A program made the position numbers and the translations under genes. A DNA stretch of 64,000 nt from Candidatus Pacearchaeota archaeon (lineage in GTDB: Archaea > Nanobdellota > Nanobdellia > Pacearchaeales > GW2011-AR1): contig JALUUW010000003.1 in assembly GCA_027021195.1 (NCBI GenBank), positions 4,843 through 68,842 on the forward strand, read 5' to 3'. Below, piece after piece: positions 48-63,471 of this stretch (position 1 is the stretch's first letter; the number at the start of each line of letters is the position of its first letter). The notes under the pieces were generated by a model. That model was not told the DNA's origin and searched no databases. It saw only the letters and a list, made by a program, of their open reading frames with translations.

Positions 48-587
48 TTGAAAGAGTTTACAAAAAAATATGAATTTGAAAATAATAAATCTCTTCCTTT
101 TTTTGTTGTAGGATTTGCTGGAAAGAACGGCAGAATTTTTATCTTGGATAAAAAACTTTTTCCAAAACAAGGACACAGAGAAGAAGAATTTGAAAGAGTC
201 GTTGTTCATGAATTATGCCATGTATTTATCAGGAGAATGCTACACCCCAAACATACTTTCATTTGGATAGAGGAAGGGCTATGTGAATTTTTGTCTTTTG
301 GAGATTATCCTTTAAAAATAAAAAAAATAGTGGATTTTAGAGAGATTGAAACTTCTGAAGGATGGAGAAAGCATAATGCCTATCAACAAGCAAAAGGTTT
401 TTTTAAATATTTATCTAAAAATTATGGGGATAAAAAAATAGTGGAATTTATTAAAAAAATTAAAGTTACTTCTGAGAGAAAGGCATTTAAAGAGGTGTTT
501 GGAAAAGAAATAAATGAAATCCAAGAAAAGTTCTTTAACACCTTGAAAAATGAAAAAACTCTATCATCCGGGAATTCCTTGCAATGA
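48..587 (+). CDS. Putative Zn-dependent peptidase-like protein (HExxH...E motif: VVVHELCHVF...EEG). It may begin upstream of the window.
   Basis: ORF-track translation contains HELCH with a downstream Glu (gluzincin-like pattern). It overlaps the start of the downstream rSAM gene by 38 nt, which is operon-like. Confidence 0.4.
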   Translation: MKEFTKKYEFENNKSLPFFVVGFAGKNGRIFILDKKLFPKQGHREEEFERVVVHELCHVFIRRMLHPKHTFIWIEEGLCEFLSFGDYPLKIKKIVDFREIETSEGWRKHNAYQQAKGFFKYLSKNYGDKKIVEFIKKIKVTSERKAFKEVFGKEINEIQEKFFNTLKNEKTLSSGNSLQ

Positions 588-1716
588 GAATATAGTTCAA
601 AAAGATTTAGAAAAGAGTCTTATTAATTTTAGAAATAAGCGTATAGAGATTGTTGAATGTAATGAAGGGTTTGGAGTTTTTGATAAAGACTGGTTTTGGG
701 CAACAAAAGAAGAGTTAGATTCTCTTAAGAAATGCCCAGATATCTCAATAAGGTATTTTTTAGATAATGAAAAGTTCAATCATGAAGGATGGTTTTTTTA
801 TAACCCAATAGAACTTGGTATAGAATTAACAAGAGAATGTAATCAGCTGTGTATTCATTGTTGGAATGAATCTTCTTCAAGGGATACTAAAATGCCTTTG
901 AAGAAGGCAAAAGAAATTATTCAGGAATTTAGAAAAGGAGGAGGACAGAAAATAAAGATATCTGGTGGAGAACCATTATCATATTCTTCTTTAGATGAAT
1001 TTTTATTTTTTTCAAAAGAAGTTGGGATAAAAAAAGTAGATATGACATCTAATGGAGTGTTAATGAATAGGGAAAAAGCAAAATTTTTATCTACTCATCT
1101 AACAAATATATGTATAAGTATTCATGGTTCTAAATCAGATATACATGACGATATAACTTACAATAAAGGAAGTTTTGTAAAATCTATTAAAGCAATAGAG
1201 CATCTTCAGGAAGAAGGGTTAAACCCCATAATTAATTATACTGTTATGCAGAAAAACAAAAAGGACATTGCAGACATGATTGAATTAGGGAAAATTCTTA
1301 ATGTTAACGGGATAAAATTCAGTTGTTTAAAAAAGATTGGAAGAGCGAGAAATTTAGAGGTAATTTCTAAAGAAGAGGTAAATACATTAAGAAATTTAAT
1401 ATATACTAAATCGAAAGAGCTTGGAATTGAGTTAGAGAAGAGTGAATTGTATCCTGCAGGATATGTTCAAGGCATTAGTCAATCAAAATTTTATGGATGT
1501 AATGGATTAAGAACCCAACTATATATCTCTTCAGAAGGCAACGTTTACCCATGTAGTTTAATAAATGAAAGTATTGGAAACATTTACCAAGATTCTTTAT
1601 TTAATTTATGGAGAAGTAAAAAAGCTCAGGAATTTAGAAGATTGGATAATTGTATTAAAAATGATTGCAAAATAATTAGGGATTGTGGGAGAAAGTGTAG
1701 GGCAAGTTTGAAGTAA
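550..1716 (+). CDS. Radical SAM enzyme with C-terminal SPASM-like Cys-rich domain and ~90-aa N-terminal extension
   Basis: CNQLCIHC (CX3CX2C) radical-SAM cluster motif. A GGEP-type SAM-binding segment is present (ISGGEPL). The C-terminus has multiple Cys (CNG...CSL...CIKNDCKIIRDCGRKC), typical of SPASM auxiliary-cluster domains. Confidence 0.8.
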   Translation: MKKLYHPGIPCNENIVQKDLEKSLINFRNKRIEIVECNEGFGVFDKDWFWATKEELDSLKKCPDISIRYFLDNEKFNHEGWFFYNPIELGIELTRECNQLCIHCWNESSSRDTKMPLKKAKEIIQEFRKGGGQKIKISGGEPLSYSSLDEFLFFSKEVGIKKVDMTSNGVLMNREKAKFLSTHLTNICISIHGSKSDIHDDITYNKGSFVKSIKAIEHLQEEGLNPIINYTVMQKNKKDIADMIELGKILNVNGIKFSCLKKIGRARNLEVISKEEVNTLRNLIYTKSKELGIELEKSELYPAGYVQGISQSKFYGCNGLRTQLYISSEGNVYPCSLINESIGNIYQDSLFNLWRSKKAQEFRRLDNCIKNDCKIIRDCGRKCRASLK

Positions 1717-1793
1717 CGAGGGAGAGTTAAATATAAAATATATTTTGACCATGGAAGAAAAATAGGGTATGGGAAGCTAAAAAAAGAGCAGAT

Positions 1794-2372
1794 ATGGAAG
1801 GTTATGAGAATATAAAATTTGTTAAAGCTGATATCAATTCCTTACCCTTTGACTCAGAAACGTTTGACGTTGTCATAGTAGGAAATGTCTTCTCTTTGAT
1901 AGAAAATAAAAAAATTGCATTAAAGGAATGCATGCGTGTTTCTAAAAAAAATGGATTTATTATTGTAATCCCTATGTATTACATAAAAGAACCTTCGAAG
2001 GAACTTATAAAGAGAGTTTCCAAAGCCCTTAAAGTCGACATTGCTCCTATGTATCGATCAGATTGGATAAATTTCTTCTCAATATCTGGATTAGAAATAT
2101 ATTGGTCAAAAGATTTCAAATTTGACCACATAGACAATAAAAAAATAATTTCCTTTTGTGAGGAGATTTTTAATAAAGAACATTTACGAAACTTGACTAA
2201 ATCGGCATATGAGAAACTATTTGAAGTTTATCAGAAATTTATGTTTCTATTTCGCGATAATTTATCTCATATGGGATATATCATACTTATTTTATCTAAA
2301 AGAAAGTTGTGGGAAGATCCAGAACTCTTTACATCCAGAGAAAATATCTCCCTTGGAAACTTTAGTCAATAG
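1794..2372 (+). pseudogene. Class I SAM-dependent methyltransferase fragment lacking the N-terminal SAM-binding motif I (likely truncated or remnant)
   Basis: The translation starts inside the MTase fold (NIKFVKADINSLPFDSETFDVVIVGNVF = post-motif II/III region). Upstream in frame there is a stop at 1746–1748, no ATG and no GxGxG motif. Only 78 nt separate it from the upstream gene. Confidence 0.4.
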
Positions 2373-2390
2373 AATAAAATATGGTAATTC

Positions 2391-3416
2391 TTATTTGATT
2401 CCTTTTTCTAAGAACTCAAAATTGTTTGTTTCTGAGTCAATTACAACTTTTGTACCAATAGGGATAGTTAGCTGAGGATCGGTATGACCTATATCCACTC
2501 CAAACAAAATGGGAAAATTATATTCTTTTGTTCTCTCCAGTAACTTCTTTTTTAGCATTTCTATATCTTCTTCATTATATCTAAAAGGTCTGCCAAAAAT
2601 TAGCCCTCTGATTTGTTTAAATACTCCTAAAATGTTTAACTGCTCCAGATACCAGTCAACATAAGGAAGGGGTTCCCCTTCATCAAATGTCTGACCTTCT
2701 GGCAATTCTAAAAATAGAATCTTATCTGTATGATCTGGCCAGTATTTTGTACCTGGCAAATGGACTATTGATGTGAGACATCCTCCTATAATTTTACCTT
2801 CTGCTTTTCCTCCTCGCAACCATTCAAAACCTTTATTTTCTTTCAATTTTCTTGGCCTTGTAAGATCCAACTTTTTACTCCAATCTAAGAATTCATCAGT
2901 CCAGCTTTCAGAAGGAGATACTTTTCCTATGGGTTCATCTGATGCTACTGCCTTATTAAAATAATCTAAAGTATATTTAAGAGGATGAGGGTATTCTCCA
3001 AATTGAGTTATAATACATGGTCCATAAAAAGTTATAAGATTGGATTGCGTATGGAGTGCATAGTGCAAGATAGAGATATCTGAATAACCACAGAATATCT
3101 TTGGATTTTGTTTTATTTTCTCAAAATCTAAATAATTTAGAGTATGGGTTGCTACTGTTCCTCCAATTAAAGATATAATTGCTTTTATATCTTTGTCAAG
3201 AAAAGCGTCCATTATGTCTTTAGCCCTTTCTTCTGCAGGAGCAGATTCCCATCCGTTAACTTTTCTTGCTGTAGGAAACTCTTTAATTTTATAACCCTCA
3301 GATTTTAGAAATTTAACCGCATTGTCAAGTCTATGGGGAAAGTTCAATCCAGACGATGGAGCGATTATTGCTATTGTATCTCCTTTTCCAAGTCGTGGAG
3401 GCTTAATTAGTTCCAT
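2391..3416 (-). CDS. LD-carboxypeptidase (peptidase S66, MccF-like)
   Basis: GDTIAIIAPSS N-terminal motif, GYSDIS Ser-nucleophile motif and a C-terminal His/Glu region. Length and architecture fit the S66 family. Confidence 0.7.
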   Translation of the reverse strand: MELIKPPRLGKGDTIAIIAPSSGLNFPHRLDNAVKFLKSEGYKIKEFPTARKVNGWESAPAEERAKDIMDAFLDKDIKAIISLIGGTVATHTLNYLDFEKIKQNPKIFCGYSDISILHYALHTQSNLITFYGPCIITQFGEYPHPLKYTLDYFNKAVASDEPIGKVSPSESWTDEFLDWSKKLDLTRPRKLKENKGFEWLRGGKAEGKIIGGCLTSIVHLPGTKYWPDHTDKILFLELPEGQTFDEGEPLPYVDWYLEQLNILGVFKQIRGLIFGRPFRYNEEDIEMLKKKLLERTKEYNFPILFGVDIGHTDPQLTIPIGTKVVIDSETNNFEFLEKGIK

Positions 3417-3862: not shown

Positions 3863-4531
3863 TTATATCTTAATTCTTTTAACATATTCTATACATTCAT
3901 TAATTAGAGGAATTATATCTGGATTATGCTTCCACGTTTCCATTACTCTCTTTCTTAATTCTTTATGTTCAGCATAGCCTTTATCTTCAACAAACCATAG
4001 ATCTCTACACTCTAAATTTAAGATTGCAGTTAAAGACTCATTAACATACTCTATTTCTCTAAACCCTAGCTGATTTCTAATTAAAGGCAAATGTGTTTTT
4101 TCCATCTGTAAATGCATTAATTCATGTCCACATGTTCTTAAATTTTGCAACAGAGGTCTTCGAATTGAGACCATGAAAGAATCCTCCTCCACATTATAAG
4201 GACATCTTCCAGCAGTTGTAATATATGCATTAAATTCATTTGAATATATTTTGTGTTTGGTAATTTTTTCTAACCTTTCAAAAAACCTGTTATTTATTTT
4301 TCCCCAAGAGTTCTGCAATGTTTCTAAAAAGATGTCTAAATGGCCTGAAGAATATAATGGTTGAATATACTGTTCAATCTCTTCCCTACATTCTTCAAAT
4401 TTTCTATTTTTCCACCTCTGTAGGACTGACCCTCTTTCTAATTCATTCTCCCATGGATGCTCGTAGTTGCTAGTTTCCCATATATTCCAAAGGTCTTTTT
4501 CCTTATCAAACTTAAAAATTACTTTTGACAT
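3863..4531 (-). CDS. HExxH-motif protein, putative metallopeptidase (222 aa)
   Basis: RTCGHELMHLQ...REIEYVNE gives an HExxH plus downstream Glu. It has the same motif class as ORF 48..587. Confidence 0.4.
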   Translation of the reverse strand: MSKVIFKFDKEKDLWNIWETSNYEHPWENELERGSVLQRWKNRKFEECREEIEQYIQPLYSSGHLDIFLETLQNSWGKINNRFFERLEKITKHKIYSNEFNAYITTAGRCPYNVEEDSFMVSIRRPLLQNLRTCGHELMHLQMEKTHLPLIRNQLGFREIEYVNESLTAILNLECRDLWFVEDKGYAEHKELRKRVMETWKHNPDIIPLINECIEYVKRIKI

Positions 4532-4547: not shown

Positions 4548-5072
4548 TTAAGCTTTTTGTTTATTTTTTAATAGTAATAAAATAACATTATGTTTATGGG
4601 GGGGCAAATTATCATGCTCTTCAATGGGGGTCTCATACATTCCTTCCTTCATTATTTCCCAATCAGAATATAGGTTTTTTAATTGTTTTAATGAAGGATA
4701 AAACCTATTTTGTGCATTTCTTGCCATAGGGTCTTTATCTGAAAAACAGATGATAAAAGTATGTCCTTGCTCAGAGGTATGTGTTTGTATCTTTTTTAAA
4801 ATATTTTGTGCAGTTACCTTATCTAAAAAATGCAAAACTAACGAAGCAATTATTAAGTCATATTTCTCTTTGAATTCAAAATTTGTTATATCTTCATTAA
4901 AGAATTTAAAATTTTTCTGGGAGATTTCCATAGGTCTTTTATCTACTCCAAGAACTTTTACGCCTTGTTTGGCAAATCTGAGAGATTTATGCCCTTTCCC
5001 ACAACCCAGATCCAAAACATTTTGAGGCTGTAGTTCTTTAAGATATTCTTTGACTTTATCCCTTATTATCAT
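4548..5072 (-). CDS. Class I SAM-dependent methyltransferase
   Basis: Motif I VLDLGCGKG, motif II-like KVLGVD and motif III-like DLIIASLVLHF. Confidence 0.7.
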   Translation of the reverse strand: MIIRDKVKEYLKELQPQNVLDLGCGKGHKSLRFAKQGVKVLGVDKRPMEISQKNFKFFNEDITNFEFKEKYDLIIASLVLHFLDKVTAQNILKKIQTHTSEQGHTFIICFSDKDPMARNAQNRFYPSLKQLKNLYSDWEIMKEGMYETPIEEHDNLPPHKHNVILLLLKNKQKA

Positions 5073-5108: not shown

Positions 5109-6170
5109 CTAATCTTGTGAGCTTCCCTGCACATATTCTTTAAAACACATAGGGTCTTTGGCCATATAATCTCCTGTTACTGCATAAGCAATTGCCCTAC
5201 ATCCTCTGCAGTGCACCACTTTATCACAAAGAGTATTCTCCCTCATTTTATTCAAATCTCTTAAATTTTGCATTACCTTGTTCTCTAAAATTAAATTACC
5301 TATTCCGTCACTTATGCGACCTATTTTAATAGGAAGTCTTCTACAAGGATAAACAGTTCCGTCCGATAATATTGAAAGCATTCTAAATCCTGCAGAACAC
5401 CCCCAAAGATATTTATTTTGCTCCTTTGCTGTTTTTATTACTTCGTTTTCTTTTTCCAATATTTGCCAAAGAACATCAGATTGAAGGACATTAATCTTAT
5501 CTCTATATTTTTCATTTAGTCTTTCAGTTTCTTTAACCATCTCGTAGATTTCTTTAGCATTAATAAATTCAGGATCTTTAATTCCTAAGTTTGAATCTGG
5601 ATTATAAGTTTTAAAACCCACTTTTTTAGCTCCTGCTAAAATTGCATTTTGGATAACATCCTCAAACTCTTTTTTATTAGACTGCATAAGAGTCATGGCT
5701 ACTGTAACATTTAAGCCTTCTTTTGAAGCATTTCTTATCCCTTCAATTGCCATATCATATGCAAAATCTTTTCTCCTAATTTTATTATGTGTGCGCTTAG
5801 ATCCATCAAGAGAAACTTGTATTGCTTCAACTTTTTGCTCCAAAAGTTCTCTAGCTTTTTTAGGAGTAATTAATGTGCCATTAGTTAACAAATTTGTTAT
5901 AACTTTTTTCTTACAAGCATATTCTAAAATTTCAAGATGATCTTCCCTCATTAAAGGATCTCCTCCCGAAATTGCGATTCTGGGTATCATCTCCCACCTT
6001 TTTGCTGTCTCTGCTAAATCATCTATCATTGATTTTACTTCATTTAAACTCATTAAATTATCATCTTGGATGTGGTCTACATTCCCTTCGTTGTTATGAT
6101 AACAATGGGAGCATTTAAGATTACAATCATTTGTGGAATCCCCTTGAATATATAAGTGTCTTTTAGCCAT
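5109..6170 (-). CDS. Radical SAM enzyme with C-terminal SPASM-like domain
   Basis: CNLKCSHC (CX3CX2C) near the N-terminus, ISGGDPL SAM-binding segment, and a C-terminal Cys-rich region (CSAG...CRRL...CDKVVHCRGC). Confidence 0.8.
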   Translation of the reverse strand: MAKRHLYIQGDSTNDCNLKCSHCYHNNEGNVDHIQDDNLMSLNEVKSMIDDLAETAKRWEMIPRIAISGGDPLMREDHLEILEYACKKKVITNLLTNGTLITPKKARELLEQKVEAIQVSLDGSKRTHNKIRRKDFAYDMAIEGIRNASKEGLNVTVAMTLMQSNKKEFEDVIQNAILAGAKKVGFKTYNPDSNLGIKDPEFINAKEIYEMVKETERLNEKYRDKINVLQSDVLWQILEKENEVIKTAKEQNKYLWGCSAGFRMLSILSDGTVYPCRRLPIKIGRISDGIGNLILENKVMQNLRDLNKMRENTLCDKVVHCRGCRAIAYAVTGDYMAKDPMCFKEYVQGSSQD

Positions 6171-6212: not shown

Positions 6213-6338
6213 TTATTCTAAAGAATAGACATCATCTGCGTAACATGCATCTGGACCACAAGCATCGCAAGGGTCACAGTGATAACGATCTTTCTCTTGA
6301 GACGCTTTATTAGTTATATAAGAACTAATATCTAACAT
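6213..6338 (-). CDS. Candidate RiPP precursor peptide, 41 aa, MLDISSYITNKASQEKDRYHCDPCDACGPDACYADDVYSLE (not in the supplied ORF track)
   Basis: I translated the minus strand by hand: ATG at 6338, TAA at 6213–6215. It carries 4 Cys in a 12-residue acidic core. It sits 42 nt upstream of, and on the same strand as, the rSAM/SPASM gene 5109..6170. Confidence 0.5.
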   Translation of the reverse strand: MLDISSYITNKASQEKDRYHCDPCDACGPDACYADDVYSLE

Positions 6339-6390
6339 ACCCTTAAGAAAAGCTTGTTCCTCAGCAGTTCTCTCCAGTTTATTTGTTTTT

Positions 6391-6400
6391 GCTATAAAAA
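6391..6400 (-). promoter_or_regulatory. TATA-like box (TTTTTATAGC on the minus strand) ~55 nt upstream of the small Cys-rich ORF
   Basis: AT-rich TTTATA element preceded by a purine-rich BRE-like stretch. Position relative to the ATG is compatible with a short 5' UTR. Confidence 0.25.
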
Positions 6401-6583
6401 GCCAACAACCTTAATATATTTAAATTTTATTGTAATGGATTTATTTTGTAGTGCCTAAGTAACTTAAAAAGTTATTTATTTGCAGATTTTTCAGAAGAAA
6501 CAACCTCAAACTCAGTTGAGCCTATATAATTTCCATCTACATTAAACACTGTTTTGCAAATCCCTAATTGTAATGATTTGTCA

Positions 6584-6615
6584 AAACAAAATCCTCTTCA
6601 TTTACATTTCTTGAA
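6584..6615. repeat. 32-nt exact copy of an internal coding segment of the giant gene 11026..14769 (second copy at 11601..11632)
   Basis: AAACAAAATCCTCTTCATTTACATTTCTTGAA is identical at both loci. At 11601–11632 it encodes NVNEEDFVYT on the minus strand. Confidence 0.8.
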
Positions 6616-6639: not shown

Positions 6640-6740
6640 ATACCCCGCAGCTCTGCTGCGGTTGGGAGCTTCACTTCAGAACGAGATGGGGCAGAAGTCA
6701 TGACTCCAGAATTAGCGGATGTGTCTTAACAGGAAGTCTT
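6640..6740. ncRNA. GC-rich structured patch, candidate small RNA (unclassified)
   Basis: Local GC is well above the window average. It contains the perfect hairpin GCAGC-TCT-GCTGC flanked by CCCC...GGGG. No ORF with a start codon spans it. Confidence 0.25.
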
Positions 6741-6801: not shown

Positions 6802-7386
6802 TCACTCAGATGTTCTGCTGATTTCATTCAGATATTCTGCTAATTGCCTCATATCATCAGGCTTCCCCTCTAATTCAGAATAATATTTATTGTCCATTTC
6901 AAAGTAAAACCTATTCACGAAATCAATAGTCTCTTTGTATTTGCTTATGCCTTTTTTCTCAACTAATTTATTAAAGCAGTCAATATATCTCATTAGGGCT
7001 TCAGTCAACTCCCTTGTTTCCTCGCTCTCCTTAAGCAGGGCTTTATCCATATTAGAATATGCTTTATCCAAAAATTCAATTACTTCTTTATAATTCTCAA
7101 CCCCTTTTTTTTCCACCAATTTGTAAAAAGCACACGCATATTCTGTTAAAGCCATAGTCAGGTCCCTGATTTCCGGGTCTTTGATTCTATGTATCTCTTT
7201 CTGGAATCTATCCATATCATCAAGTTCTTTTTCTATTGTCTCTTGGAAAGTTTGGTTTTTTATTTTTGACCGAAAAATGATTCCGTGTTCCACTAGACCT
7301 TTATGGAATCCTCTTAATCCTTTCAATATCTTTTCATTTAATTTAATTTTTTCTGCTTCTATCATTTTAATCTTACATAGTTCCAC
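6802..7386 (-). CDS. Hypothetical helical protein with an internal tandem repeat (~45-aa unit: LT.AL..Y...F.KLVEKKG...YKE.I.F...)
   Basis: Two clearly similar segments in the translation (LTMALTEYACAFYKLVEKKGVENYKEVIEF / LTEALMRYIDCFNKLVEKKGISKYKETIDF). Confidence 0.4.
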   Translation of the reverse strand: MELCKIKMIEAEKIKLNEKILKGLRGFHKGLVEHGIIFRSKIKNQTFQETIEKELDDMDRFQKEIHRIKDPEIRDLTMALTEYACAFYKLVEKKGVENYKEVIEFLDKAYSNMDKALLKESEETRELTEALMRYIDCFNKLVEKKGISKYKETIDFVNRFYFEMDNKYYSELEGKPDDMRQLAEYLNEISRTSE

Positions 7387-10178: not shown

Positions 10179-10967
10179 TTACACTAAAACTTCATCAACT
10201 CCGTATCCAGGAGGCCATGCAAGGCTTCTTGAAGCAAACTGGAATTTATTTCCGCTGTTGAGGTCTGTTAAAATATAGATTGTAGTGCCGTCGGATTGTT
10301 TTTTCTTCTCAACTTTCAAATCACGGTAATAGTTCATGTAGGTTGTTGTTTCAGCATCTCCGTATCTTGTTTCCCATGCAATTATGCTGTTTGCAATACT
10401 TAATAGTTCATAAAGATTATTGTTCAGGACTACTCTTAAATTGTCATAGCTTTCTGAAGATTCTTTTGTGAGAGTTAAGGAGTTGCTGAATGTAGCGACA
10501 ATTCTTTTTGGAAGCAGCTCAACATCAGGCTCTCCCTGCTTTAAGCTTACTTTATACCCTCTTTTCTCATAACTCTCTTTCATGGAATCAAAGCACTCTT
10601 TTGCCTTTCCTCTTATGTCTTTTTTTATCTCAGACTCAATGTGCTTTTTCAGCATTGGCTGCTGCACCACGCATGTTTTGTAGTACTCCTCAGTGTAGCA
10701 AAGATATTCTACTTTTTCATCATTATACAAAAAATAGTGTTCTGGCTTCAGGCTGCCACCCTGCATTGAAAGCCTTTCAACAGAATTTTTAATATCCTCT
10801 TCCATGCAGTTTTGAATAAATGCAGACGGATTCATGCTCTCGAGCCACAAATTAGACCCTATCTTTGGATAAAACAAGTAAGATAAAACACCTATAATCA
10901 CAATCATTATTGCAATTATGATGAAAATCGTCACTTGCCCCTTTCTTTTCCATGATATTTCCCGCAT
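10179..10967 (-). CDS. N-terminally TM-anchored protein (262 aa), paralog of 14771..15601
   Basis: Motifs shared with 14771..15601: QVTIFII (TM), SMQGG, YLCYT, PML, CFD. It lies 2 nt upstream of the Cys-rich gene. Confidence 0.5.
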   Translation of the reverse strand: MREISWKRKGQVTIFIIIAIMIVIIGVLSYLFYPKIGSNLWLESMNPSAFIQNCMEEDIKNSVERLSMQGGSLKPEHYFLYNDEKVEYLCYTEEYYKTCVVQQPMLKKHIESEIKKDIRGKAKECFDSMKESYEKRGYKVSLKQGEPDVELLPKRIVATFSNSLTLTKESSESYDNLRVVLNNNLYELLSIANSIIAWETRYGDAETTTYMNYYRDLKVEKKKQSDGTTIYILTDLNSGNKFQFASRSLAWPPGYGVDEVLV

Positions 10968-11025: not shown

Positions 11026-14000
11026 TTAAATTGATTCCGGCCTTAATATAATTGCACAGCCAGGATTTGTATTTCCTCCAAGATCTTCGCATTTGATGTA
11101 ATGCCTCTTTCCAGACTCCCACTCGCTGGTATGGGTTCTTGAAAATACATCTGTCATAGGCTTTGCATCCTCTCCTCGAATGTCAAATCCGCATCCATTA
11201 AAACTGTAATAGCATTTTGCATCTTCGTCTGTTATTACCTTTAACTCTCCCTCGCTGTAAGCCCTTACTATTTTTGGAGCTTCAGTGTCAAGCTCTAAAG
11301 TGAATACTGCATTTCCATAAGCAGTATTTCCTGCATCGTCTTCGCACTTTACATAAATATTGTAGTCTCCTTTCATCATAGTGTTGAAGTTCTGCTTATG
11401 CCTCCTGGAGAAGCTCTCAAAAAACAGAGTCATGTCATCATATCCTGAGAAACTGTAATAACAGGAAGACTTTCCATTCCTCGCCCCTCCGGAAGTCTCA
11501 ACTTCAAGGTCTACTGAGATTGGCTCGAACCATCTCTTGATTTTTCCCTGAGGGGTTATTGAGGTTATGTTAAGATTTGTCTCTGAAACATAGAGTGTAT
11601 AAACAAAATCCTCTTCATTTACATTTCTTGAAGTGTTCTCTGGAGGAAGCCATGGCTGGTCTTTGCACCTGATGTAAAAATTGTTTTCTCCTTCTGCAAG
11701 CCCTTTAAGAGTGGTGCTGCACTGCCATCCCAACAGCTCCCTCTCTGTTATTCCTGTTTTGCAATCCATTGAATTGCTCATTTCCTCATAGCTTTTTCCG
11801 CTTTCAGTGCTGTACCTGCATTCAGCAGGCTCACTTAGGTAAATCTGAAGAGGCGTTTCTGTAACATTATATTTCAGGAAACTTTCATCCTCTGGAACTG
11901 CAACTGTTCTTGAATGGTCTACAGCAGTTGTGTCTGGCCCTGAGTTAATGCAGAAATTCACCGTATACTCGTCAATATTGTAGTTTCCATGATAGTCCTT
12001 GCACTTAACATACATATTCATGTTTCCAAACATCTCTCTTATGTCTCCTGCAACATCATAGACGCTTAAGCTGTCCAGGCTTGGCATTGAAAATGAAAAA
12101 GTGTGGTTGAGAGTGAATGCATTTTGCTCAACAGGGTATCCTCTCATTTCGTCATATTCTGTTTTCTGGAAATCAAACTTGCACTGCGCAAATTCATCTG
12201 TTTTTAGGCTGAAGCTGACAGGAGTGAATTCAGGGATGCAGTTTCCGTTTTCCCTTCTTATCTCAACTCTTTTTGCATCTTCGTTATTGAACTTGTAGCC
12301 CTCGTCAATATCTCCTGCAGAAATTACAGGAGGATTGCTTTCATAAGGGATGCTCTCGCAGACAGGGTTTTCTGTTTCTTCATTAAGGATTCTGCATGCC
12401 TGCCCAAGGCTCTCGCATCTGTATCTTGTGCAAGGCATTCCTTTTTCAGCAAGCTCGTTGCATCTTTTGCAATTCTCTCCTCCTGCAGGAGCCTGCCATG
12501 GCATGCATGTAAACTCAACAACCCTTTCTTTTGTCTTTCCCCATCCAACAACTATGACATATACCATTATTATTACTGCTGCTGCCAGTGCGTATGTTCC
12601 AAAATTCAATCCCCATTTGAGCCATCCGACCTTCATTAGGCCAAGTATTCCTCCTGCAACCCCTCCTGCTACTGTCAGGACTGTTGCTGCATTTCCAGAC
12701 CTTCCCAAAGACTGGGCAATAAATGCTCCTGCAACTGTTCCTATTGCAAACCCTGCTGCTGCCCATGCGAATGCTCCTATGGATGTATATGTGGTAGAAA
12801 CAACTGCTTCAGATCCTGCAAAAATTGTCTTTGTTCCCAATAATGATGTTGTTGTTTCATAAGCTCCATAAGTGTAGGTGGTAGTTCCTATTCCCAAATG
12901 GCTAATGGCCATAATCAAGGTTCCAGCTCCTCCTGAAACTTCTCCAAGCTGCTTTATTACAGCCTGTATTTTATCCTCTTTAGGCTTTTTGCCAGAATTA
13001 CCGCTTATTGAAGAGATGTAATCATCAATTTCCTGGGGCTTTACATACTGGCCTTCTACAGGATCTGCATAATCCTTATATCTTTCCCATGAAACACTTG
13101 GAGACCGCGTTACTTTAATGTTATCGCTTCCCTCTCCAATATAATTGATATAGCTTCCGCAATCTCCGAGGCTGATGCAAAGGTCATTCATCTGCTCTGC
13201 AAAAACTCCTTTCTCGCAATTGCAGTTCTCAATGCACTCCCACTTTCCTCTTGAGTTTTTTTGGTATATGACAGTGCATTTTTGATTTGCCATTGCGCAT
13301 ATGCTGTCTGCAATAGAGCTTTCCCTTTGCCTGAACCCTCTTGGATATCTTCCAACGCAGACATCAAAGCTGAACCCGTCATCAATATTAATGTTTTTAA
13401 TCATGCAGTGCTTGTTTTTATTGCATTTTTCAGCCATGTTTCCCTGTGAATTGTAATCAAGGCACTTTGTAGCTTCGTTCACAACGCATGAGGCTACTGA
13501 AAAGCTTTTTCCGTTTTCCTCTATTTCTGATTCTGTGCAAAGCCCCCCTCTATAGTCACTGCATCCCTCTGTCTTTACTTCTCCATCAATACATATTTTT
13601 CTCCAGTGCCTGCTTCCTGCAGGATCTTTCCCTTCTCCTATATAAGAGTCATAAGCACACCAGCTCTCCCCGTTCTTTCTCTCTTTTCCGCCTGTCTCAG
13701 GAGATGCAGGGCAGTTTTTGTTTTTGCATATATAATCTCCGTCTTTTGCTTTTTTTCCTCCTGCCTCGTCTGAAGGCGCGCACATGCTTCCAAGGAAATA
13801 ATTGCAGTTTCCGCACTCTTCTGACTGAATATTGTCTGAATCAGGGTTGCAGCTTTCCTGTTTGCTTAACACCTTTCCGTTATTCCACGAAAAATCCCTG
13901 TCTGAGGAATAGATGTTTTCCCTGTTTCCGCAGGAATCAATCCAGTAAATCTCGTCTTTTCCCTCAATGCAGCTTATGCTTGCCTGCCTTTCACATTCAA

Positions 14001-14769
14001 CCCCCATTTCTTTAAATTCCGGATTTGAACATAGATGGTCTTTGTAAAAGTCTCCCTGAATGCTGAGGCATCTTGATTCTGTTGTAAATTCGCATCTGCC
14101 TCCTTCAAGGATGCATGCCCCTTCAAACTGGCTTGCAGAAAGAGCAAGGCATTCAAATTCTGTTTCAAGGTCTCTAAAGTCTTTTTTAAACCCGTAAAAA
14201 GATGAAAGTTTTTCACACCTTTTTTCTGTAACAAACTGCGCATTATCTCCCAAAACACAGCATCCTTTCTGGCATTCGCTTACTAAACATGATTCTTCAT
14301 TTTTCCATATTCCTCCTCCAGACTCGCATTTTTTTCTGGTGGATTTTGTTGTGCATAGCCCCTCATCTTCGTCAATGCAGCATCCTATCTTGCAGTCAGC
14401 AACTTCATCGCATTTTGTCGGAAGAGGATTGTCGCAGCTTTCAGTATCAAAAAACCCGACATCCTGGCATATTGCTCCGCTTTTTGTAACAGGGCAGCAT
14501 TTCCATGACTCTTCTTCTGCAGAAACAATTCCTATCTGTTTTATTGATAAAAATCCCACTAAGAGGCTTGCTCCTGCAGCAATGAGATTCCCAAGACTGT
14601 CTTTTCCTTTATCTCTTTTTATTATAATGGAGCTGCTGTCAGGCTGGCTGCTCATTCCTATAACATAGCTGGTTGCAGGACTCATATTAACCAGAAGGAA
14701 AATCTGGAACATAACAACAGCTAGCAAGCTTAGTTCTGTTTTTCTTTCCCTGATTTTTATTGACTTCAT
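11026..14769 (-). CDS. Giant secreted/membrane Cys-rich protein (1247 aa). It has a signal peptide, an N-terminal Cys-rich region, a central Gly/Ala/Thr-rich multi-TM segment and a C-terminal region with four repeated beta-rich domains.
   Basis: Signal-like N-terminus. Hydrophobic stretch ~aa 610–745. C-terminal repeats YVKCKDYHGN / YIRCKDQPW / YVKCEDDAGN / YIKCEDLGGN. Confidence 0.6.
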   Translation of the reverse strand: MKSIKIRERKTELSLLAVVMFQIFLLVNMSPATSYVIGMSSQPDSSSIIIKRDKGKDSLGNLIAAGASLLVGFLSIKQIGIVSAEEESWKCCPVTKSGAICQDVGFFDTESCDNPLPTKCDEVADCKIGCCIDEDEGLCTTKSTRKKCESGGGIWKNEESCLVSECQKGCCVLGDNAQFVTEKRCEKLSSFYGFKKDFRDLETEFECLALSASQFEGACILEGGRCEFTTESRCLSIQGDFYKDHLCSNPEFKEMGVECERQASISCIEGKDEIYWIDSCGNRENIYSSDRDFSWNNGKVLSKQESCNPDSDNIQSEECGNCNYFLGSMCAPSDEAGGKKAKDGDYICKNKNCPASPETGGKERKNGESWCAYDSYIGEGKDPAGSRHWRKICIDGEVKTEGCSDYRGGLCTESEIEENGKSFSVASCVVNEATKCLDYNSQGNMAEKCNKNKHCMIKNINIDDGFSFDVCVGRYPRGFRQRESSIADSICAMANQKCTVIYQKNSRGKWECIENCNCEKGVFAEQMNDLCISLGDCGSYINYIGEGSDNIKVTRSPSVSWERYKDYADPVEGQYVKPQEIDDYISSISGNSGKKPKEDKIQAVIKQLGEVSGGAGTLIMAISHLGIGTTTYTYGAYETTTSLLGTKTIFAGSEAVVSTTYTSIGAFAWAAAGFAIGTVAGAFIAQSLGRSGNAATVLTVAGGVAGGILGLMKVGWLKWGLNFGTYALAAAVIIMVYVIVVGWGKTKERVVEFTCMPWQAPAGGENCKRCNELAEKGMPCTRYRCESLGQACRILNEETENPVCESIPYESNPPVISAGDIDEGYKFNNEDAKRVEIRRENGNCIPEFTPVSFSLKTDEFAQCKFDFQKTEYDEMRGYPVEQNAFTLNHTFSFSMPSLDSLSVYDVAGDIREMFGNMNMYVKCKDYHGNYNIDEYTVNFCINSGPDTTAVDHSRTVAVPEDESFLKYNVTETPLQIYLSEPAECRYSTESGKSYEEMSNSMDCKTGITERELLGWQCSTTLKGLAEGENNFYIRCKDQPWLPPENTSRNVNEEDFVYTLYVSETNLNITSITPQGKIKRWFEPISVDLEVETSGGARNGKSSCYYSFSGYDDMTLFFESFSRRHKQNFNTMMKGDYNIYVKCEDDAGNTAYGNAVFTLELDTEAPKIVRAYSEGELKVITDEDAKCYYSFNGCGFDIRGEDAKPMTDVFSRTHTSEWESGKRHYIKCEDLGGNTNPGCAIILRPESI
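11601..11632. repeat. Second copy of the 32-nt exact repeat (inside the CDS 11026..14769)
   Basis: Identical to 6584..6615. Confidence 0.8.
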
Positions 14770-27446: not shown

Positions 27447-28043
27447 CTAAATTCCTCTCCTGTCCAGCTCGTTGTTCACAATGGCAACTGTCTGGCTGGC
27501 AAAATACATCTTAGGGCCAATGGAGATTTTCTTTGCAATTTTTTTCAGCCTTTTAAGCTCTTTGATAGGAAGCCCTTCGTGGTCCCCTAAAACAAAAACA
27601 CTTTCTTCAGGAATTTTTGCCTTTCTTATGTCTTCTCCCTTTCTGTCAAGAATGAATATTTCATTTCCATCCTCATAGAGCCCCTCAACAACTTTCAGAA
27701 AGCTCTTTTTCTCTATAAAGCATCCGGAAAGAGCTTCTGTTTTTTTGCCTTCCCTGTACTTGTAAAGGATTTTTTTAATTAAATTCCCTATGTCTTTCTT
27801 GCTTATGTCAAGCTCAGGAGTTACCTGCATTTCAATGTGTTTTGGAGCATCAGGAGGGCCGTAAAATACCAAGTGCATCTTAACATCCTTTCTGAATCCA
27901 TGGGAAAGAAAAAAAGCAGAGATGATTGTGTGTATTGCAATGTCCATTCTACCTGCTTTCATCAGGTTTCCTTTTCCTTTTTCTCCTGAAAGGGCCTTTC
28001 CAGATGTCGCTGCTTTGCTTGAAAAATATATGAAGTGCCTCAT
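27447..28043 (-). CDS. trmY: SPOUT-class methyltransferase, TrmY-like (tRNA pseudouridine54 N1-methyltransferase family)
   Basis: GRMDIAIHTIISAFFLSH and VFVLGDHEGLP motifs, ~200 aa. Adjacent to cbf5. Confidence 0.5.
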   Translation of the reverse strand: MRHFIYFSSKAATSGKALSGEKGKGNLMKAGRMDIAIHTIISAFFLSHGFRKDVKMHLVFYGPPDAPKHIEMQVTPELDISKKDIGNLIKKILYKYREGKKTEALSGCFIEKKSFLKVVEGLYEDGNEIFILDRKGEDIRKAKIPEESVFVLGDHEGLPIKELKRLKKIAKKISIGPKMYFASQTVAIVNNELDRRGI

Positions 28044-29145: not shown

Positions 29146-29724
29146 ATGCTTGATAGGGATATTTCCCAAGGCCAAGGTGTTTTTGAGGTCAGAGGGGATT
29201 ACAGCATAAAATTCCCAATGGGGAAAGAGGAGAGGGAGATTATATCAGGAGATTATGCAGTATATTTCTATAATCAGATTTTAAATGCAGAAACTCCTTC
29301 TGAATGTTCTTTTTTTAGAATAGTGTTTGACGGGCTTAGATTTGAGGAACAACAAAGCCTGATACGCATTCATGAATGGTGTATGGGTGAAAAAGCAAAT
29401 CACTATATAGGGTATGGAAATGCTGCTCTTGATTTGTATGAAAGAATGGGAGTTGATGTAGGGAACTACATTGAGATAATAAAAAGGCTTGAGGATAAAA
29501 AATATGGTCATTGCAATGAGTGCGGATACCTGTTTGATGAAGAGTTTAAAAAAGAGAACAGGATAGGCTTTATTACGAAAAATCCGGGCAGAATATTTAA
29601 GCCATTTAACATATCTTCCAGCTATTGCGACGACTGCCTTGAAGAGGTTAGAGATAAAAATAAGAGGCTGAAGATAGCTGAAAGATTAAGCCATGATTTT
29701 AGGATTTTTACCACCCTTTTATGA
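29146..29724 (+). CDS. Hypothetical Zn-ribbon protein
   Basis: HCNECG...CDDC pair of CxxC. Confidence 0.3.
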   Translation: MLDRDISQGQGVFEVRGDYSIKFPMGKEEREIISGDYAVYFYNQILNAETPSECSFFRIVFDGLRFEEQQSLIRIHEWCMGEKANHYIGYGNAALDLYERMGVDVGNYIEIIKRLEDKKYGHCNECGYLFDEEFKKENRIGFITKNPGRIFKPFNISSSYCDDCLEEVRDKNKRLKIAERLSHDFRIFTTLL

Positions 29725-37841: not shown

Positions 37842-38930
37842 ATGACACAATTAACTAAAGCAGAACTTGAAGAAATTTTGGAAGAATTAGGAAAACACCG
37901 AGGAAGGGCAACAGAGCTTATCACAGTTTACATACCTTCAGGCCAGAATATTTATACTGTTTCAGACCAGCTTGAAGCAGAAAAATCAACTGCAAAAAAC
38001 ATAAAATCCACTTCAACACGAAAAAATGTAATTAATGCTTTGGAAAAGATAACAAGATACCTCAAAACCATGAAAAAGACTCCTGAGAACGGCCTTGCTG
38101 TTTTTTGCGGCAATGTAAGCAAGGTTGAAGGGCAGGAGGATCTGAAATTATGGGGTATTGAGCCTCCAATGCCCTTGAAAGTAAGAATGTACAGATGCGA
38201 CAAGGAATTTGTTCTTGAGCCTTTAAGAGAGCAGCTTGAAGTCTCAGAGGTTTTTGGCCTGCTTGTTATGGACAGAAAAGAGGCAACTATAGGCATGCTT
38301 GAAGGAAAAAGAATAGAGGTTTTGCAGCACATGACTTCAGGAATTCCAAGCAAAGTAAGGGCAGGAGGCCAGTCAAGCCAGAGGTTCCACAGAATTACTG
38401 AAGGATTAACAAAAGAATTTTACAAGAGAATTGCTGATGAGATGAAAAAGGTTTTTTTCGATATGCCGAAACTTAAGGGAATTCTTGTAGGAGGCCCTAT
38501 TCCTACAAAAGACGAGTTTCTTGACAATAAATATCTGGCCACAAAGCTTCAGGAAAAAGTGATAGGAAGAGTGGATATTGGAGATGCTGATGAATCAGGG
38601 CTAAAAGAGATTGTTGCAAAATCTCATGATATTTTGGAGAATCAGGAGATAATTCATGAAAAAAAGGTTCTTGAAAAGTTTTTTGAGACTCTTGGAGAAA
38701 AGCCTGATTTTGCTCTTTATAAAGAAGAAGATGTCAGAAAGGCTCTTGAATACGGAGCTGTAGATGTATTAATATTGTCAAAAGACCTTGATAAAAAACT
38801 CTCAAAAGAGCTGAAAAAAATGGCAGAGAGTATTTCATCAGAGGTTGAGGTTGTCTCCACAGAAACAGAAGAAGGAAAGCAGTTCAATAATCTCTCTGGA
38901 ATAGGGGCTTTGCTGAGGTTTAAGGTTTAA
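37842..38930 (+). CDS. prf1: Peptide chain release factor aRF1
   Basis: NIKS motif (KNIKSTSTR) and GGQ motif (RAGGQSSQRF). Confidence 0.85.
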   Translation: MTQLTKAELEEILEELGKHRGRATELITVYIPSGQNIYTVSDQLEAEKSTAKNIKSTSTRKNVINALEKITRYLKTMKKTPENGLAVFCGNVSKVEGQEDLKLWGIEPPMPLKVRMYRCDKEFVLEPLREQLEVSEVFGLLVMDRKEATIGMLEGKRIEVLQHMTSGIPSKVRAGGQSSQRFHRITEGLTKEFYKRIADEMKKVFFDMPKLKGILVGGPIPTKDEFLDNKYLATKLQEKVIGRVDIGDADESGLKEIVAKSHDILENQEIIHEKKVLEKFFETLGEKPDFALYKEEDVRKALEYGAVDVLILSKDLDKKLSKELKKMAESISSEVEVVSTETEEGKQFNNLSGIGALLRFKV

Positions 38931-48703: not shown

Positions 48704-49543
48704 TTAAAAAATCTTATTCATCTCCTGAAGCCTTTTTCCCGAGCCTATTGAGCTGTTGAACATTTTCCAGAATATTCTCGTCATCCACTCTGTCCATTCC
48801 CTGTTTTTGATTGTATAGAACACAAAGAGCCTTTTATTCAGCTCTTTTTCTTTTCCTGTCGGCTCTTTCATTTCCTTCATGTTAAAGAGCTTATTGTCTA
48901 TTATTGTGGCTCTTAATGGCTGTTCTCTGTGCCTTATTTCCACTAATTCTTTTCCATGCTTGAAATTTAAAGACAGCATTTTTTCTATGTTCTTCTTGCC
49001 TGCTAAATCAACCCTGCAGACGACCTTAATGCTTATTCCATTTTTCACAAGCCTGTCAAGAATATCAAAGATGTCTGTTTTTCTGTCTTTGTAATTTATA
49101 AGCGAAAGGTTTCCTGAAAAAAACAGGATTTGCTTTTTTGCGCTTAACAGGATGTCTTTAAACTCCTTTAGCCTTCCTGATTTCATCTCGCTTTCCCCCT
49201 TTTTCATCCATGCCTCCTTGTCTTTGTCCGCGACATGCTGAAAAATGTCAAATGCAGAAAAGTCCCCCTTGTTTTTGCCCTGCATTATCTGCTCCTCCAG
49301 CTTCTCCTGAAAAACAGAGTGGTTCGCCTTTTCTACTGAAGCCCAGTAAACGATTTTCAGTGCTCCGCGAGTCCCTTCCCTGAAGGTTCTTGTTGCCAGT
49401 GTTCCGAATTCTTTTTCAATTTCCTGAACATACCTGTCAGCAGTTCTCCAGTTTTTTCCCAGGTGCTTGGCTATCTCCTGTATGCTTCTTGGCTTTGAAT
49501 AGGCAAAATCCTCTATTTTTTTTATTGTTTTAGTGTCAAGCAT
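48704..49543 (-). CDS. Hypothetical protein with an N-terminal HTH-like segment
   Basis: SIQEIAKHLGKNWRTADRYVQEIE. Confidence 0.3.
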   Translation of the reverse strand: MLDTKTIKKIEDFAYSKPRSIQEIAKHLGKNWRTADRYVQEIEKEFGTLATRTFREGTRGALKIVYWASVEKANHSVFQEKLEEQIMQGKNKGDFSAFDIFQHVADKDKEAWMKKGESEMKSGRLKEFKDILLSAKKQILFFSGNLSLINYKDRKTDIFDILDRLVKNGISIKVVCRVDLAGKKNIEKMLSLNFKHGKELVEIRHREQPLRATIIDNKLFNMKEMKEPTGKEKELNKRLFVFYTIKNREWTEWMTRIFWKMFNSSIGSGKRLQEMNKIF

Positions 49544-52910: not shown

Positions 52911-53052
52911 AAGCTTTTGGCTACCACGCCCCTGAAAGAGCCTTATGGGCAGAAGACAATAGCAGGCAGTATTTAGTTTAGGATTAGCCTGGATGCTTTA
53001 AGATATTTTTTATCCTATGCAATGCTTTTCTGTGTTTGGGATTTTATAAGCA

Positions 53053-53127
53053 TGGCCCTGGAGGGATTTGAACCCCCGACACCCAGATTAAGAGTCTGGT
53101 GCTCTAACCAGGCTGAGCTACAGAGCC
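53053..53127 (-). tRNA. tRNA-Lys (anticodon CTT), CCA not encoded
   Basis: The minus-strand sequence GGCTCTGTAGCTCAGCCTGGTTAGAGCACCAGACTCTTAATCTGGGTGTCGGGGGTTCAAATCCCTCCAGGGCCA folds as a cloverleaf with a 7-bp acceptor stem, a D-arm, the anticodon loop CUCUUAA and a T-loop TTCAAAT. Confidence 0.85.
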
Positions 53128-53169
53128 ATAATTCAATATCAGAGAAGAAGTTTAAAAATCTTTACTAGC

Positions 53170-53550: not shown

Positions 53551-54189
53551 TCAATTTTCTTTGCAGAATCCCCTCTCGCTCGGAGGCTTTCCAATCTCAA
53601 AGAACACCAGCTTCCCCCATCCTATATAAGGAGCAATCCTGAATGCAGCCTTTCCGACGAGCTGCTCTTCTTTTATGCTTTTTTCAAAAGTTAGCTGCCC
53701 TCTGTTGTTGTCTCCCATTGTTGAGAAAATTTTTTCCCCTTTTTCATTTCTGATGCTGATTATTCGATGTATAACAGGATTTCTCTGTCCTGCACTGAAT
53801 ATGACTACATCTCCGATTTTCAGCCTGTCAGGATCTGCTTTTGTTATAAACAAGATATCTCCTTTGTTAAATCCGTTTTTAAATATAAACTCCTCAAACT
53901 CCTCTTTTTCAATATTAAATTTGGAATACTTTGCTTCATGCCTCTCCCACCATTCATCATAATTGGAGAGGAGATTTCCCTGATGATACATGCTGCATGA
54001 TTCAACAATTGCCAGAGGAAGCGCAGTTCCTGTTGCCAGGCTCAGAAGAGGAAAAAAGATGAACTTTATGAATATAAAAAGAAATGCAATTGAAAAAATC
54101 CACCCTTTAAAGCTGTCATCTTTCCACAGCAGAAACCAGAATTTTTTCCACAATTTAAAAGCACTCTTTTTTACGGCATTTTGGCCCAT
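53551..54189 (-). CDS. Signal peptidase I (archaeal Sec11/S26B type)
   Basis: N-terminal TM, catalytic-Ser region (VESCSMYH), GDVVIF....VIHRII...GDNN motif block. Confidence 0.6.
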   Translation of the reverse strand: MGQNAVKKSAFKLWKKFWFLLWKDDSFKGWIFSIAFLFIFIKFIFFPLLSLATGTALPLAIVESCSMYHQGNLLSNYDEWWERHEAKYSKFNIEKEEFEEFIFKNGFNKGDILFITKADPDRLKIGDVVIFSAGQRNPVIHRIISIRNEKGEKIFSTMGDNNRGQLTFEKSIKEEQLVGKAAFRIAPYIGWGKLVFFEIGKPPSERGFCKEN

Positions 54190-62854: not shown

Positions 62855-63132
62855 AAATAACTAATCAAAGAATTGCTTTTAATATTTTCCTTAGTTTATG
62901 CTCTGCCCGCAGTCCTTCAGACAATTTGCTGGAACTTTGTTACATCTAAATTTTTCTGATATTCGTTGAGAATTTTATAAAAGAGAAAGTTAATATACCT
63001 ATAAGAAGATTGAGCTCTTTCTCTCAAATGCAATCTGTTAAACAGGCACACGAGGGAAAGGAAGAAATACAAACGAAGAAGGGTAAAATAAGGCTTCTAA
63101 CCGCAGCAAAGTTGCATGGCATATGGATTAAA

Positions 63133-63471
63133 TCAATACCTAAATCTTCTTTCATAATCTTTATGGCTCATCCATTCAAGGATAATTGACAGTATTGTAA
63201 TTTCCCCATTAGCCACAGAATAAATCAATCGCCAACCTTTTGGCAAATCATATTTCCAGATATTATCAATTCCATATTTCTCAATGTAAGCTTTTGGAAT
63301 TAATCTTTTTTGTATCCTTATTCCACAAAAGGCGTTTTCCTCTAAATCTTCAAAAGCTCTACAAATCCATTTGTATAATTTTTGATCTTCTGTTTTTGAT
63401 TCTTTTAAAGCCTCAAAACTCTTCTGAATCTTCTCGTCAGCAAATTTGATTTCAGATTTCATTTTCTCCAA
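63133..63471 (-). CDS. RelE/ParE-like toxin-domain protein
   Basis: The C-terminal WKYDLPKGWRLIYSVANGEITILSIILEW...HKDYERRF resembles RelE/ParE. 13-nt overlap with the upstream small gene. Confidence 0.4.
   Translation of the reverse strand: MEKMKSEIKFADEKIQKSFEALKESKTEDQKLYKWICRAFEDLEENAFCGIRIQKRLIPKAYIEKYGIDNIWKYDLPKGWRLIYSVANGEITILSIILEWMSHKDYERRFRY

Follow-up and report, generated by a model that had tools for sequence, protein, structure and literature searches.

The window analyzed here is a 64,000-nt stretch of a Candidatus Pacearchaeota contig, and on its minus strand a small Cys-rich open reading frame lies directly in front of a radical SAM (rSAM)/SPASM gene. The small ORF (6213-6338, minus strand) runs from an ATG at 6338 to a TAA at 6213-6215, and its translation, MLDISSYITNKASQEKDRYHCDPCDACGPDACYADDVYSLE, is identical to the one given in the first-pass annotation, with four cysteines at residues 21, 24, 27 and 32. 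A gap of 42 nt separates it from the rSAM/SPASM ORF downstream (5109-6170, minus strand), which encodes a 353-aa protein, the presumed maturase, with the Pfam domains Radical_SAM (1.5e-24), Fer4_12 and SPASM (1.1e-6). Further downstream follow a 174-aa TehB-like class I SAM-dependent methyltransferase (4548-5072, minus strand; Pfam TehB, 7.2e-20), presumed to be a tailoring enzyme, and a 222-aa HExxH protein (3863-4531, minus strand), putatively zincin-like. The reported adjacency of the Cys-rich ORF to the rSAM/SPASM gene was confirmed, as the two are co-oriented and the same neighbour recurs throughout the family described below. The ORF had also been called unannotated, and in line with this the peptide has no gene call in either of two other assemblies of the locus. 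The DNA is AT-rich, and in its first 14 kb as many as 105 ORFs reach 30 aa or more; with short ORFs this abundant, the reality of the 41-aa ORF had to be tested against relatives.

A scan of a genome collection with the rSAM protein gave 16 loci from MAGs of Pacearchaeota, Woesearchaeota and Nanoarchaeota (52-70% identity). In every one of these 16 the rSAM gene is directly followed by the methyltransferase gene, which frequently overlaps it, and a short Cys-rich ORF lies directly 5' of the rSAM gene in each of the 13 loci that retain the upstream DNA. The peptides are of three subtypes: A, with KY(G/H)CDPCDACGP... (the window, L001-L004 and L016), B, with RQEGYTCVSGCxxCVSCGGND, and C, with CYDCDSCNSCGSGDCNSCC. 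The homology check against related genomes that had been proposed with the 41-aa peptide as query had a divided outcome, since the single-sequence search found no relative and a profile built from the syntenic ORFs found the family. This profile gave 104 protein clusters (90% identity) at E<=1, with lengths of 46-103 aa, all without a Pfam domain and either unnamed or "hypothetical"; the organisms named among them are only Pacearchaeota, Nanoarchaeota or "archaeon". When 1.84 billion representatives were searched exhaustively with HMMER, only 34 matched, and the 24 of these that were previously unseen all have the same design of leader and core. Scans of the window peptide against Pfam and NCBIfam at E<=10 gave no match, and neither collection has a model for the family.

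In an alignment of 100 sequences the columns E13, L17, C40, C43 and C46 are invariant. The family signature consists of a leader, (T)xxExx(F/Y)Lx(S/G)M, a linker that is variable in length and of low complexity, and a CxxCxxCG core. The leader-plus-core layout that was first proposed from the single peptide is thereby borne out, as the family shows bipartite conservation of a leader and a Cys core beside an rSAM/SPASM gene. The flanks of the core and the C-terminal tails differ strongly between the three subclades, the number of cysteines ranges from 4 to 7 and the Cys spacing is not the same from one subclade to another.

Comparison with the relatives also moved the 5' boundary of the gene. 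The conserved coding frame reaches 57 nt further 5' than ATG 6338, to 6395; the full homologous precursor frame (6213-6395, minus strand) has 60 codons plus the stop and reads (I/M)AKTNKLERTAEEQAFLKGMLDISSYITNKASQEKDRYHCDPCDACGPDACYADDVYSLE. It is open from a stop at 6411-6413, and between this stop and ATG 6338 there is no ATG, GTG or TTG in frame. The 60-residue frame is 62% identical to a 62-aa family member (P0070) across 98% of its length. A profile made from database peptides only matched the stop-to-stop frame 6216-6410 on the minus strand with E=2.5e-16, and every other match of that profile in the six-frame window was no better than E=0.6. A gene model starting at ATG 6338, as first proposed, could not be upheld: this ATG, the first canonical start in the frame, is the conserved Met20 inside the leader motif ExxFLxS-M, and the invariant E13 and L17 as well as the ancestral start lie further 5', at 6345-6395. 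The conserved motif TAEEQAFLKGM (residues 10-20) occupies 6336-6368 on the minus strand, with E13 at 6357-6359 and L17 at 6345-6347, and its window version, LERTAEEQAFLKGM, is in frame and 5' of ATG 6338. The Cys core, CDPCDACGPDAC (residues 40-51), is at 6243-6278 on the minus strand, and its CxxCxxCG is conserved family-wide. In the core, codons 41-59 differ from those of the closest relative, P0070 (locus L017), by nine synonymous changes and one nonsynonymous change, indicating purifying selection. The 41-aa ORF thus covers the last two-thirds of a precursor frame of 60 conserved codons and is a remnant of the full gene, which is a genuine member of a conserved precursor peptide family.

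At the ancestral start position (6393-6395, minus strand) the window reads ATA in place of ATG, according to both DNA and codon alignments. In the DNA alignment with five subclade-A loci the start column is ATG in all but the window, and the codon alignment with L017 has ATA against ATG. Two further assemblies of the locus, ENA ERZ27262676 and Logan SRR8439019, were retrieved via the HExxH protein, as a look-up of exact matches to the rSAM protein had no entry; across 6-7.7 kb they show 1-2 mismatches to the window, and their peptide sequence is identical, including the ATA. As all three assemblies of the same population agree on this codon, an assembly artefact is unlikely.

Upstream of the start position lies an archaeal TATA box, TTTAAATA (6417-6424, minus strand), preceded by an A-rich BRE-like stretch and placed at -29 to -22 from the start codon. 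The octamer YTTAWAWA occurs at exactly this distance in 15 of 15 loci (the window and 14 others). With such conservation we take the peptide gene to be transcribed from the box at 6417-6424, which probably also drives the whole cassette. The TATA/BRE element that the first-pass annotation had placed at 6391-6400 is actually the start context, TTTTT-ATA-GC. A scan for sigma-70 promoters and intrinsic terminators gave nothing better than shuffled sequences, with models that are not applicable to an archaeon. Archaeal TATA boxes have their centre ~26-27 nt before the point where transcription begins, and with this usual spacing a box at -29 to -22 suggests that the mRNAs of the peptide genes are leaderless. 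TATA-like octamers 29-30 nt 5' of the ATG were also seen at several other genes of the window (e.g. 10179-10967, 27447-28043, 29146-29724, 37842-38930, 48704-49543 and 53551-54189), which suggests that many genes of this genome have leaderless transcripts.

One copy (6584-6615) of an exact 32-nt direct repeat is located 5' of the peptide promoter, in an intergenic region of 405 nt. The other copy (11601-11632) is inside a 1247-aa ORF (11026-14769, minus strand), where it encodes NVNEEDFV, and a weaker match of 35 nt (86%) is present at 63099-63133. In AT-rich intergenic DNA ~140 nt downstream of the ORF 6802-7386 (minus strand) there is a GC-rich hairpin, CCGCAGC-AGA-GCTGCGG (6645-6661, minus strand), which may act as a small RNA or in the manner of a terminator. 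Neither the peptide locus nor the hairpin had an Rfam or tRNA match nearby; the sole match of these scans was a tRNA-Lys at 53052-53128.

Leaderless initiation depends on a 5'-terminal AUG, as known from work in haloarchaea (Haloferax) and bacteria. If the mRNA is leaderless, the ATA allele should thus strongly cut synthesis of the full precursor, and the alternative product from AUG 6338 is devoid of both invariant leader residues, E13 and L17. In the window genome, either the full-length precursor would be poorly made or a 41-aa product would be made from Met20. The cassette has probably lost function in this genome in part, or has recently been inactivated at the level of the peptide, with its enzymes intact.

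Disruption of the leader is not confined to the window, as it was found in four of the seven subclade-A genomes examined. Besides the ATA of the window, L002 (1790-2039) and L016 (3751-4000) each miss a single G between leader and core, the G4 run affected not being the same in the two, and L003 (1276-1509) has an in-frame TAG in the same leader-core region with an ATG two codons later. The first-pass annotation had held that frameshifts or stops in relatives that keep the rSAM gene would speak against the peptide. Such lesions do exist in these three relatives; on the other hand an intact version of the L002/L016 type is found in P0055, and with more than 100 intact members the family is preserved. 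The lesions in L002, L016 and L003 could represent real decay, strain variation or recoding. In two further loci, L013 (3000-4576) and L015 (3000-4357), the rSAM gene is reduced to its C-terminal 114-192 residues beside an intact methyltransferase gene, and L013 also keeps the HExxH gene; these are eroded cassettes. Leader lesions and truncated rSAM genes together indicate a cassette that is widespread and repeatedly eroded, with the erosion in subclade A located in the leader. P0103 (46 aa, beginning at the same Met) was considered as a second N-terminally truncated member and rejected, as a contig end cuts it.

The closest solved relatives of the rSAM enzyme are CteB (5wgg, E=6.4e-14) and SkfB (6efn, E=4.2e-12), which are thioether-forming peptide maturases. 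The rSAM cluster motif CX3CX2C reads CNLKCSHC and aligns, together with the SPASM cysteines, to CteB. Residues 13-330 of the enzyme align to CteB 104-422 and the rSAM domain begins at residue ~11; with an alignment that starts at CteB residue 104, there is no counterpart of the N-terminal RRE of CteB. No RRE is fused to the enzyme and no PqqD-like match was obtained among the cassette proteins. An RRE is common in the rSAM/SPASM class of RiPP systems, not universal. All of the best NCBIfam scores are below their cutoffs, with the ACGX-system rSAM model (TIGR04340) at 171.8 bits (cutoff 400), NirJ2 at 170.2 and AhbD at 153.5. A scan of viral contigs gave no relatives of the rSAM gene. At the beginning of the window there is a second possible peptide-modification locus (48-2372, plus strand), which runs off the window start. 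It encodes an HExxH protein (HELCH) with weak flagellinolysin and BSP-peptidase matches, a 388-aa rSAM/SPASM protein with an N-terminal extension of ~85 residues and below-cutoff matches to AhbD, AlbA and StsB, and an ArsM/UbiE-like methyltransferase, apparently without the N-terminal SAM-binding part; no precursor peptide for this locus was found within the window.

The HExxH gene is next in the cassette in L002, L003, L013, L016 and L017-L019, and is a frequent addition in the subclade of the window. Its product has ~175 homologue clusters, all "hypothetical" and all from DPANN where the organism is named, and it has no sequence match in Pfam, NCBIfam or the PDB. Residues H136, E137, H140 and E165 are invariant; a gluzincin-type zinc metallopeptidase would have HExxH, a Glu ligand further downstream and a zincin fold. 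The AF2 model is of high confidence (pLDDT 95.5) and its Foldseek scores are not significant; from the motif and the model we read the protein as a putative zincin-like enzyme. A role as leader peptidase is the most economical candidate and an Asp-modifying HExxH oxygenase the alternative. In subtype-B loci (L008:5584-7192, also L005 and L010) a DUF3419 protein and an APH/EcKL-like kinase are encoded co-directionally after the methyltransferase, and these extra genes suggest that the Ser/Thr-rich core of subtype B is tailored differently. The conserved part of the cassette includes neither a transporter nor an immunity gene. An S66 LD-carboxypeptidase (2391-3416, minus strand) was evaluated as an MccF-like immunity gene; none of the related loci was found to carry it, and as it is not conserved beside the cassette it was left out. 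This MccF-like family member, a bacterial-type enzyme for peptidoglycan peptides and unexpected in a DPANN archaeon, adjoins the cassette in the window genome only.

We compared the cassette with known systems. When models of known RiPP precursors were run against 100 family peptides none was significant, the best being a single freyrasin-like match at E=0.022. The SCIFF/ranthipeptide system (TIGR03973, with a CteB-type maturase) is alike in having a short precursor with an N-terminal leader and a C-terminal Cys-rich core beside an rSAM/SPASM gene, and CteB is the closest solved homologue, with its rSAM and SPASM cysteines aligned. However, no family peptide matches the SCIFF model, and CteB has an N-terminal RRE of ~100 residues in a maturase of ~450 aa, whereas the enzyme here has 353 aa and no RRE. 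The ExxFLxSM leader, the CxxCxxCG core and the obligatory TehB-like methyltransferase further set the family apart from SCIFF, which is clostridial while the present family is archaeal (DPANN). The ACGX-repeat system (peptide TIGR04341, rSAM/SPASM TIGR04340), itself uncharacterised, has the top NCBIfam model for the enzyme, matched end-to-end (11-345 vs 8-340), RRE-less and of ~350 aa, and the cores of the present family have one (A/S/G/N)-C-G-x unit, ACGP in the window. Against membership, the enzyme scores 171.8 bits where the cutoff is 400, no better than for NirJ2, and neither the window peptide nor the 100 family members match TIGR04341 at E<=10, with that model present in the library (cutoff 28 bits). 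Each peptide here has a single xCGx unit, unlike the tandem ACGX repeats.

Freyrasin, in which PapB forms Cys-X3-Asp thioethers, resembles the window peptide by a Cys/Asp-rich core with CX3D at C40...D44 and C51...D55, and it is the freyrasin-like model that gave the match noted above for one family member (E=0.022, not significant). The PapB model, however, gives the enzyme 94.8 bits only (cutoff 340), and subclades B and C do not conserve CX3D. Like ours, mycofactocin and PQQ cassettes have no transporter and bring together an rSAM/SPASM enzyme and a small peptide with a methyltransferase and a peptidase-like protein. MftC and PqqE depend on a PqqD-type RRE partner, and the residues that they modify are a C-terminal Val-Tyr or a Glu/Tyr pair, whereas the present family has a Cys core and no RRE, and the enzyme scores far under the cutoffs of their models (85.3 vs 265 and 80.6 vs 381). 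Of the features that generally mark rSAM/SPASM RiPP systems, we found an adjacent co-oriented precursor, a bipartite precursor and an enzyme with CX3CX2C and SPASM cysteines; an RRE is absent. By these comparisons the family belongs to none of the ACGX, SCIFF and freyrasin families, and would work like a SCIFF/ranthipeptide or sactipeptide system. It is an undescribed family of precursor peptides, restricted to DPANN, in which the maturase has no RRE and a TehB-like methyltransferase is always present.

Our preferred reading, to which we give a probability of roughly 0.7, is that the peptide is an rSAM-modified RiPP precursor and the first gene of the cassette, that it is probably thioether-crosslinked and then methylated, and that its expression is probably impaired in this genome. 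The scheme builds on the observed gene content, conservation and homologies, and every chemical step in it is proposed from these. The order of the cassette is precursor, rSAM/SPASM enzyme, TehB-like methyltransferase and, in the subclade of the window, the putatively zincin-like HExxH protein. Transcription would start from the TATA box at 6417-6424 and, by the promoter spacing, give a leaderless mRNA whose 5' end is the start codon at 6395. The leader of ~39 residues, with the motif E13, F16, L17 and M20, would dock the peptide on the maturase. The rSAM/SPASM enzyme, in which the SPASM cysteines by homology bind auxiliary clusters, would then act on the invariant CxxCxxCG block. By homology to CteB and SkfB, the likeliest reaction would be the formation of Cys-to-carbon thioether crosslinks of the ranthipeptide/sactipeptide type, with nearby Asp residues as possible acceptors, given the PapB-like CX3D spacings C40-x3-D44 and C51-x3-D55. 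As a guess, the methyltransferase may add methyl groups to sulfur or carboxylate, and in subclade A the HExxH protein may remove the leader, possibly at a conserved K/R-Y-x|C junction.

Several observations count against a RiPP. The lack of an RRE or PqqD-like protein would leave leader recognition without an explanation, the rSAM enzyme scores as well with the tetrapyrrole enzymes NirJ2 and AhbD as with any peptide maturase model, the family peptides have no significant match to a known RiPP precursor model, and there is the missing transporter or immunity gene. Also, leader lesions in four of seven genomes could mean that the N-terminal leader is dispensable or that the peptide is often lost. 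The last point bears on the suggestion that the gene is a fresh pseudogene in the window genome, where a leaderless mRNA deprived of its ATG would not be translated and the 41-aa ORF would be unmade or no substrate. We judge this somewhat less probable than even odds, and it concerns the present state of the gene and is compatible with the RiPP-precursor reading. It agrees with the ATA at the conserved start in three assemblies, the promoter spacing that implies a leaderless mRNA and a 41-aa product without the invariant E13 and L17. In addition, no SD-like sequence is found at a suitable distance 5' of ATG 6338, and related cassettes decay too (leaders of L002, L003 and L016, rSAM truncation in L013 and L015). 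On the other hand the ATA is the sole lesion, with the other 59 codons, the promoter and the three enzyme genes intact, and initiation at AUA or at the internal AUG is possible.

The peptide could alternatively be the scaffold of a cofactor or metallophore, as for PQQ, mycofactocin and methanobactin, with CxxCxxCG giving rise to a small redox or metal-binding moiety that is used by the archaea themselves and not a secreted RiPP. We find this improbable: the variable flanks and tails and the 4 to 7 cysteines are what is usual for natural products that diversify, in contrast to a cofactor in universal use, the cassette has a patchy distribution with decay in some genomes, and no dependent oxidoreductase is linked to it. 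Even so, a cassette that joins an rSAM/SPASM enzyme to a peptide, a methyltransferase and a peptidase-like protein, without transporter or immunity genes, resembles cofactor cassettes, the maturase models of PqqE and mycofactocin also match the enzyme (below cutoff) and three cysteines are strictly invariant. The cassette is also widespread in organisms for which an atlas (10.64898/2026.04.17.719132) reports very few BGCs. A role of the peptide as a metal- or Fe-S-binding partner of the rSAM enzyme, such as a mini-ferredoxin or chaperone that provides CxxCxxC...C ligands and is not a substrate, seems very improbable to us, since the variable low-complexity linker and variable tails fit a leader/core peptide better than a folded domain and the Cys spacing varies between subclades. 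The ferredoxin motif is CxxCxxCxxxCP, which the C-x2-C-x2-C-x4-C of the peptide resembles, and the missing RRE would also suit a partner protein. One family member has a weak match to a [2Fe-2S] ferredoxin (E=0.022), which is not significant because 100 x 18950 comparisons were made. That the frame is open by chance in AT-rich intergenic DNA, as the 105 ORFs in 14 kb and the lack of a single-sequence homologue or Pfam/NCBIfam match might suggest, has next to no probability; it is refuted by the family HMM (E=2.5e-16), the synteny in 13 of 13 loci and the mostly synonymous changes in the core.

Going beyond the precursor reading itself, the cassette might make a structurally new, DPANN-specific peptide by an RRE-less rSAM/SPASM enzyme with undescribed chemistry on CxxCxxCG, followed by S- or O-methylation by the TehB-type enzyme. 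As the cassette is retained across many genome-reduced Pacearchaeota and Woesearchaeota, it could serve in host interaction or metal acquisition. We consider this extended proposal unlikely on the whole.

DPANN archaea have tiny genomes. They are reported to encode very few BGCs (10.64898/2026.04.17.719132). In the relevant passages of two archaeal genome-mining surveys, rSAM-type RiPP clusters in DPANN/Nanoarchaeota are mentioned generically only, and no characterised DPANN RiPP product is described there (PMC12144867, PMC12016038). Our literature search found no paper with the core motif "CDPCDACG" and none linking "ACGX" to radical SAM. What is new here is a precursor family of more than 100 sequence clusters, for which signatures of leader and core, the layout of the promoter and a minimal cassette of three genes are now defined. 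Such genes escape annotation because they are short and, in the window genome, because the canonical start is missing; a naive reading from ATG to stop gives a truncated and probably non-functional gene model. With the cassette defined, its heterologous reconstitution becomes directly feasible.
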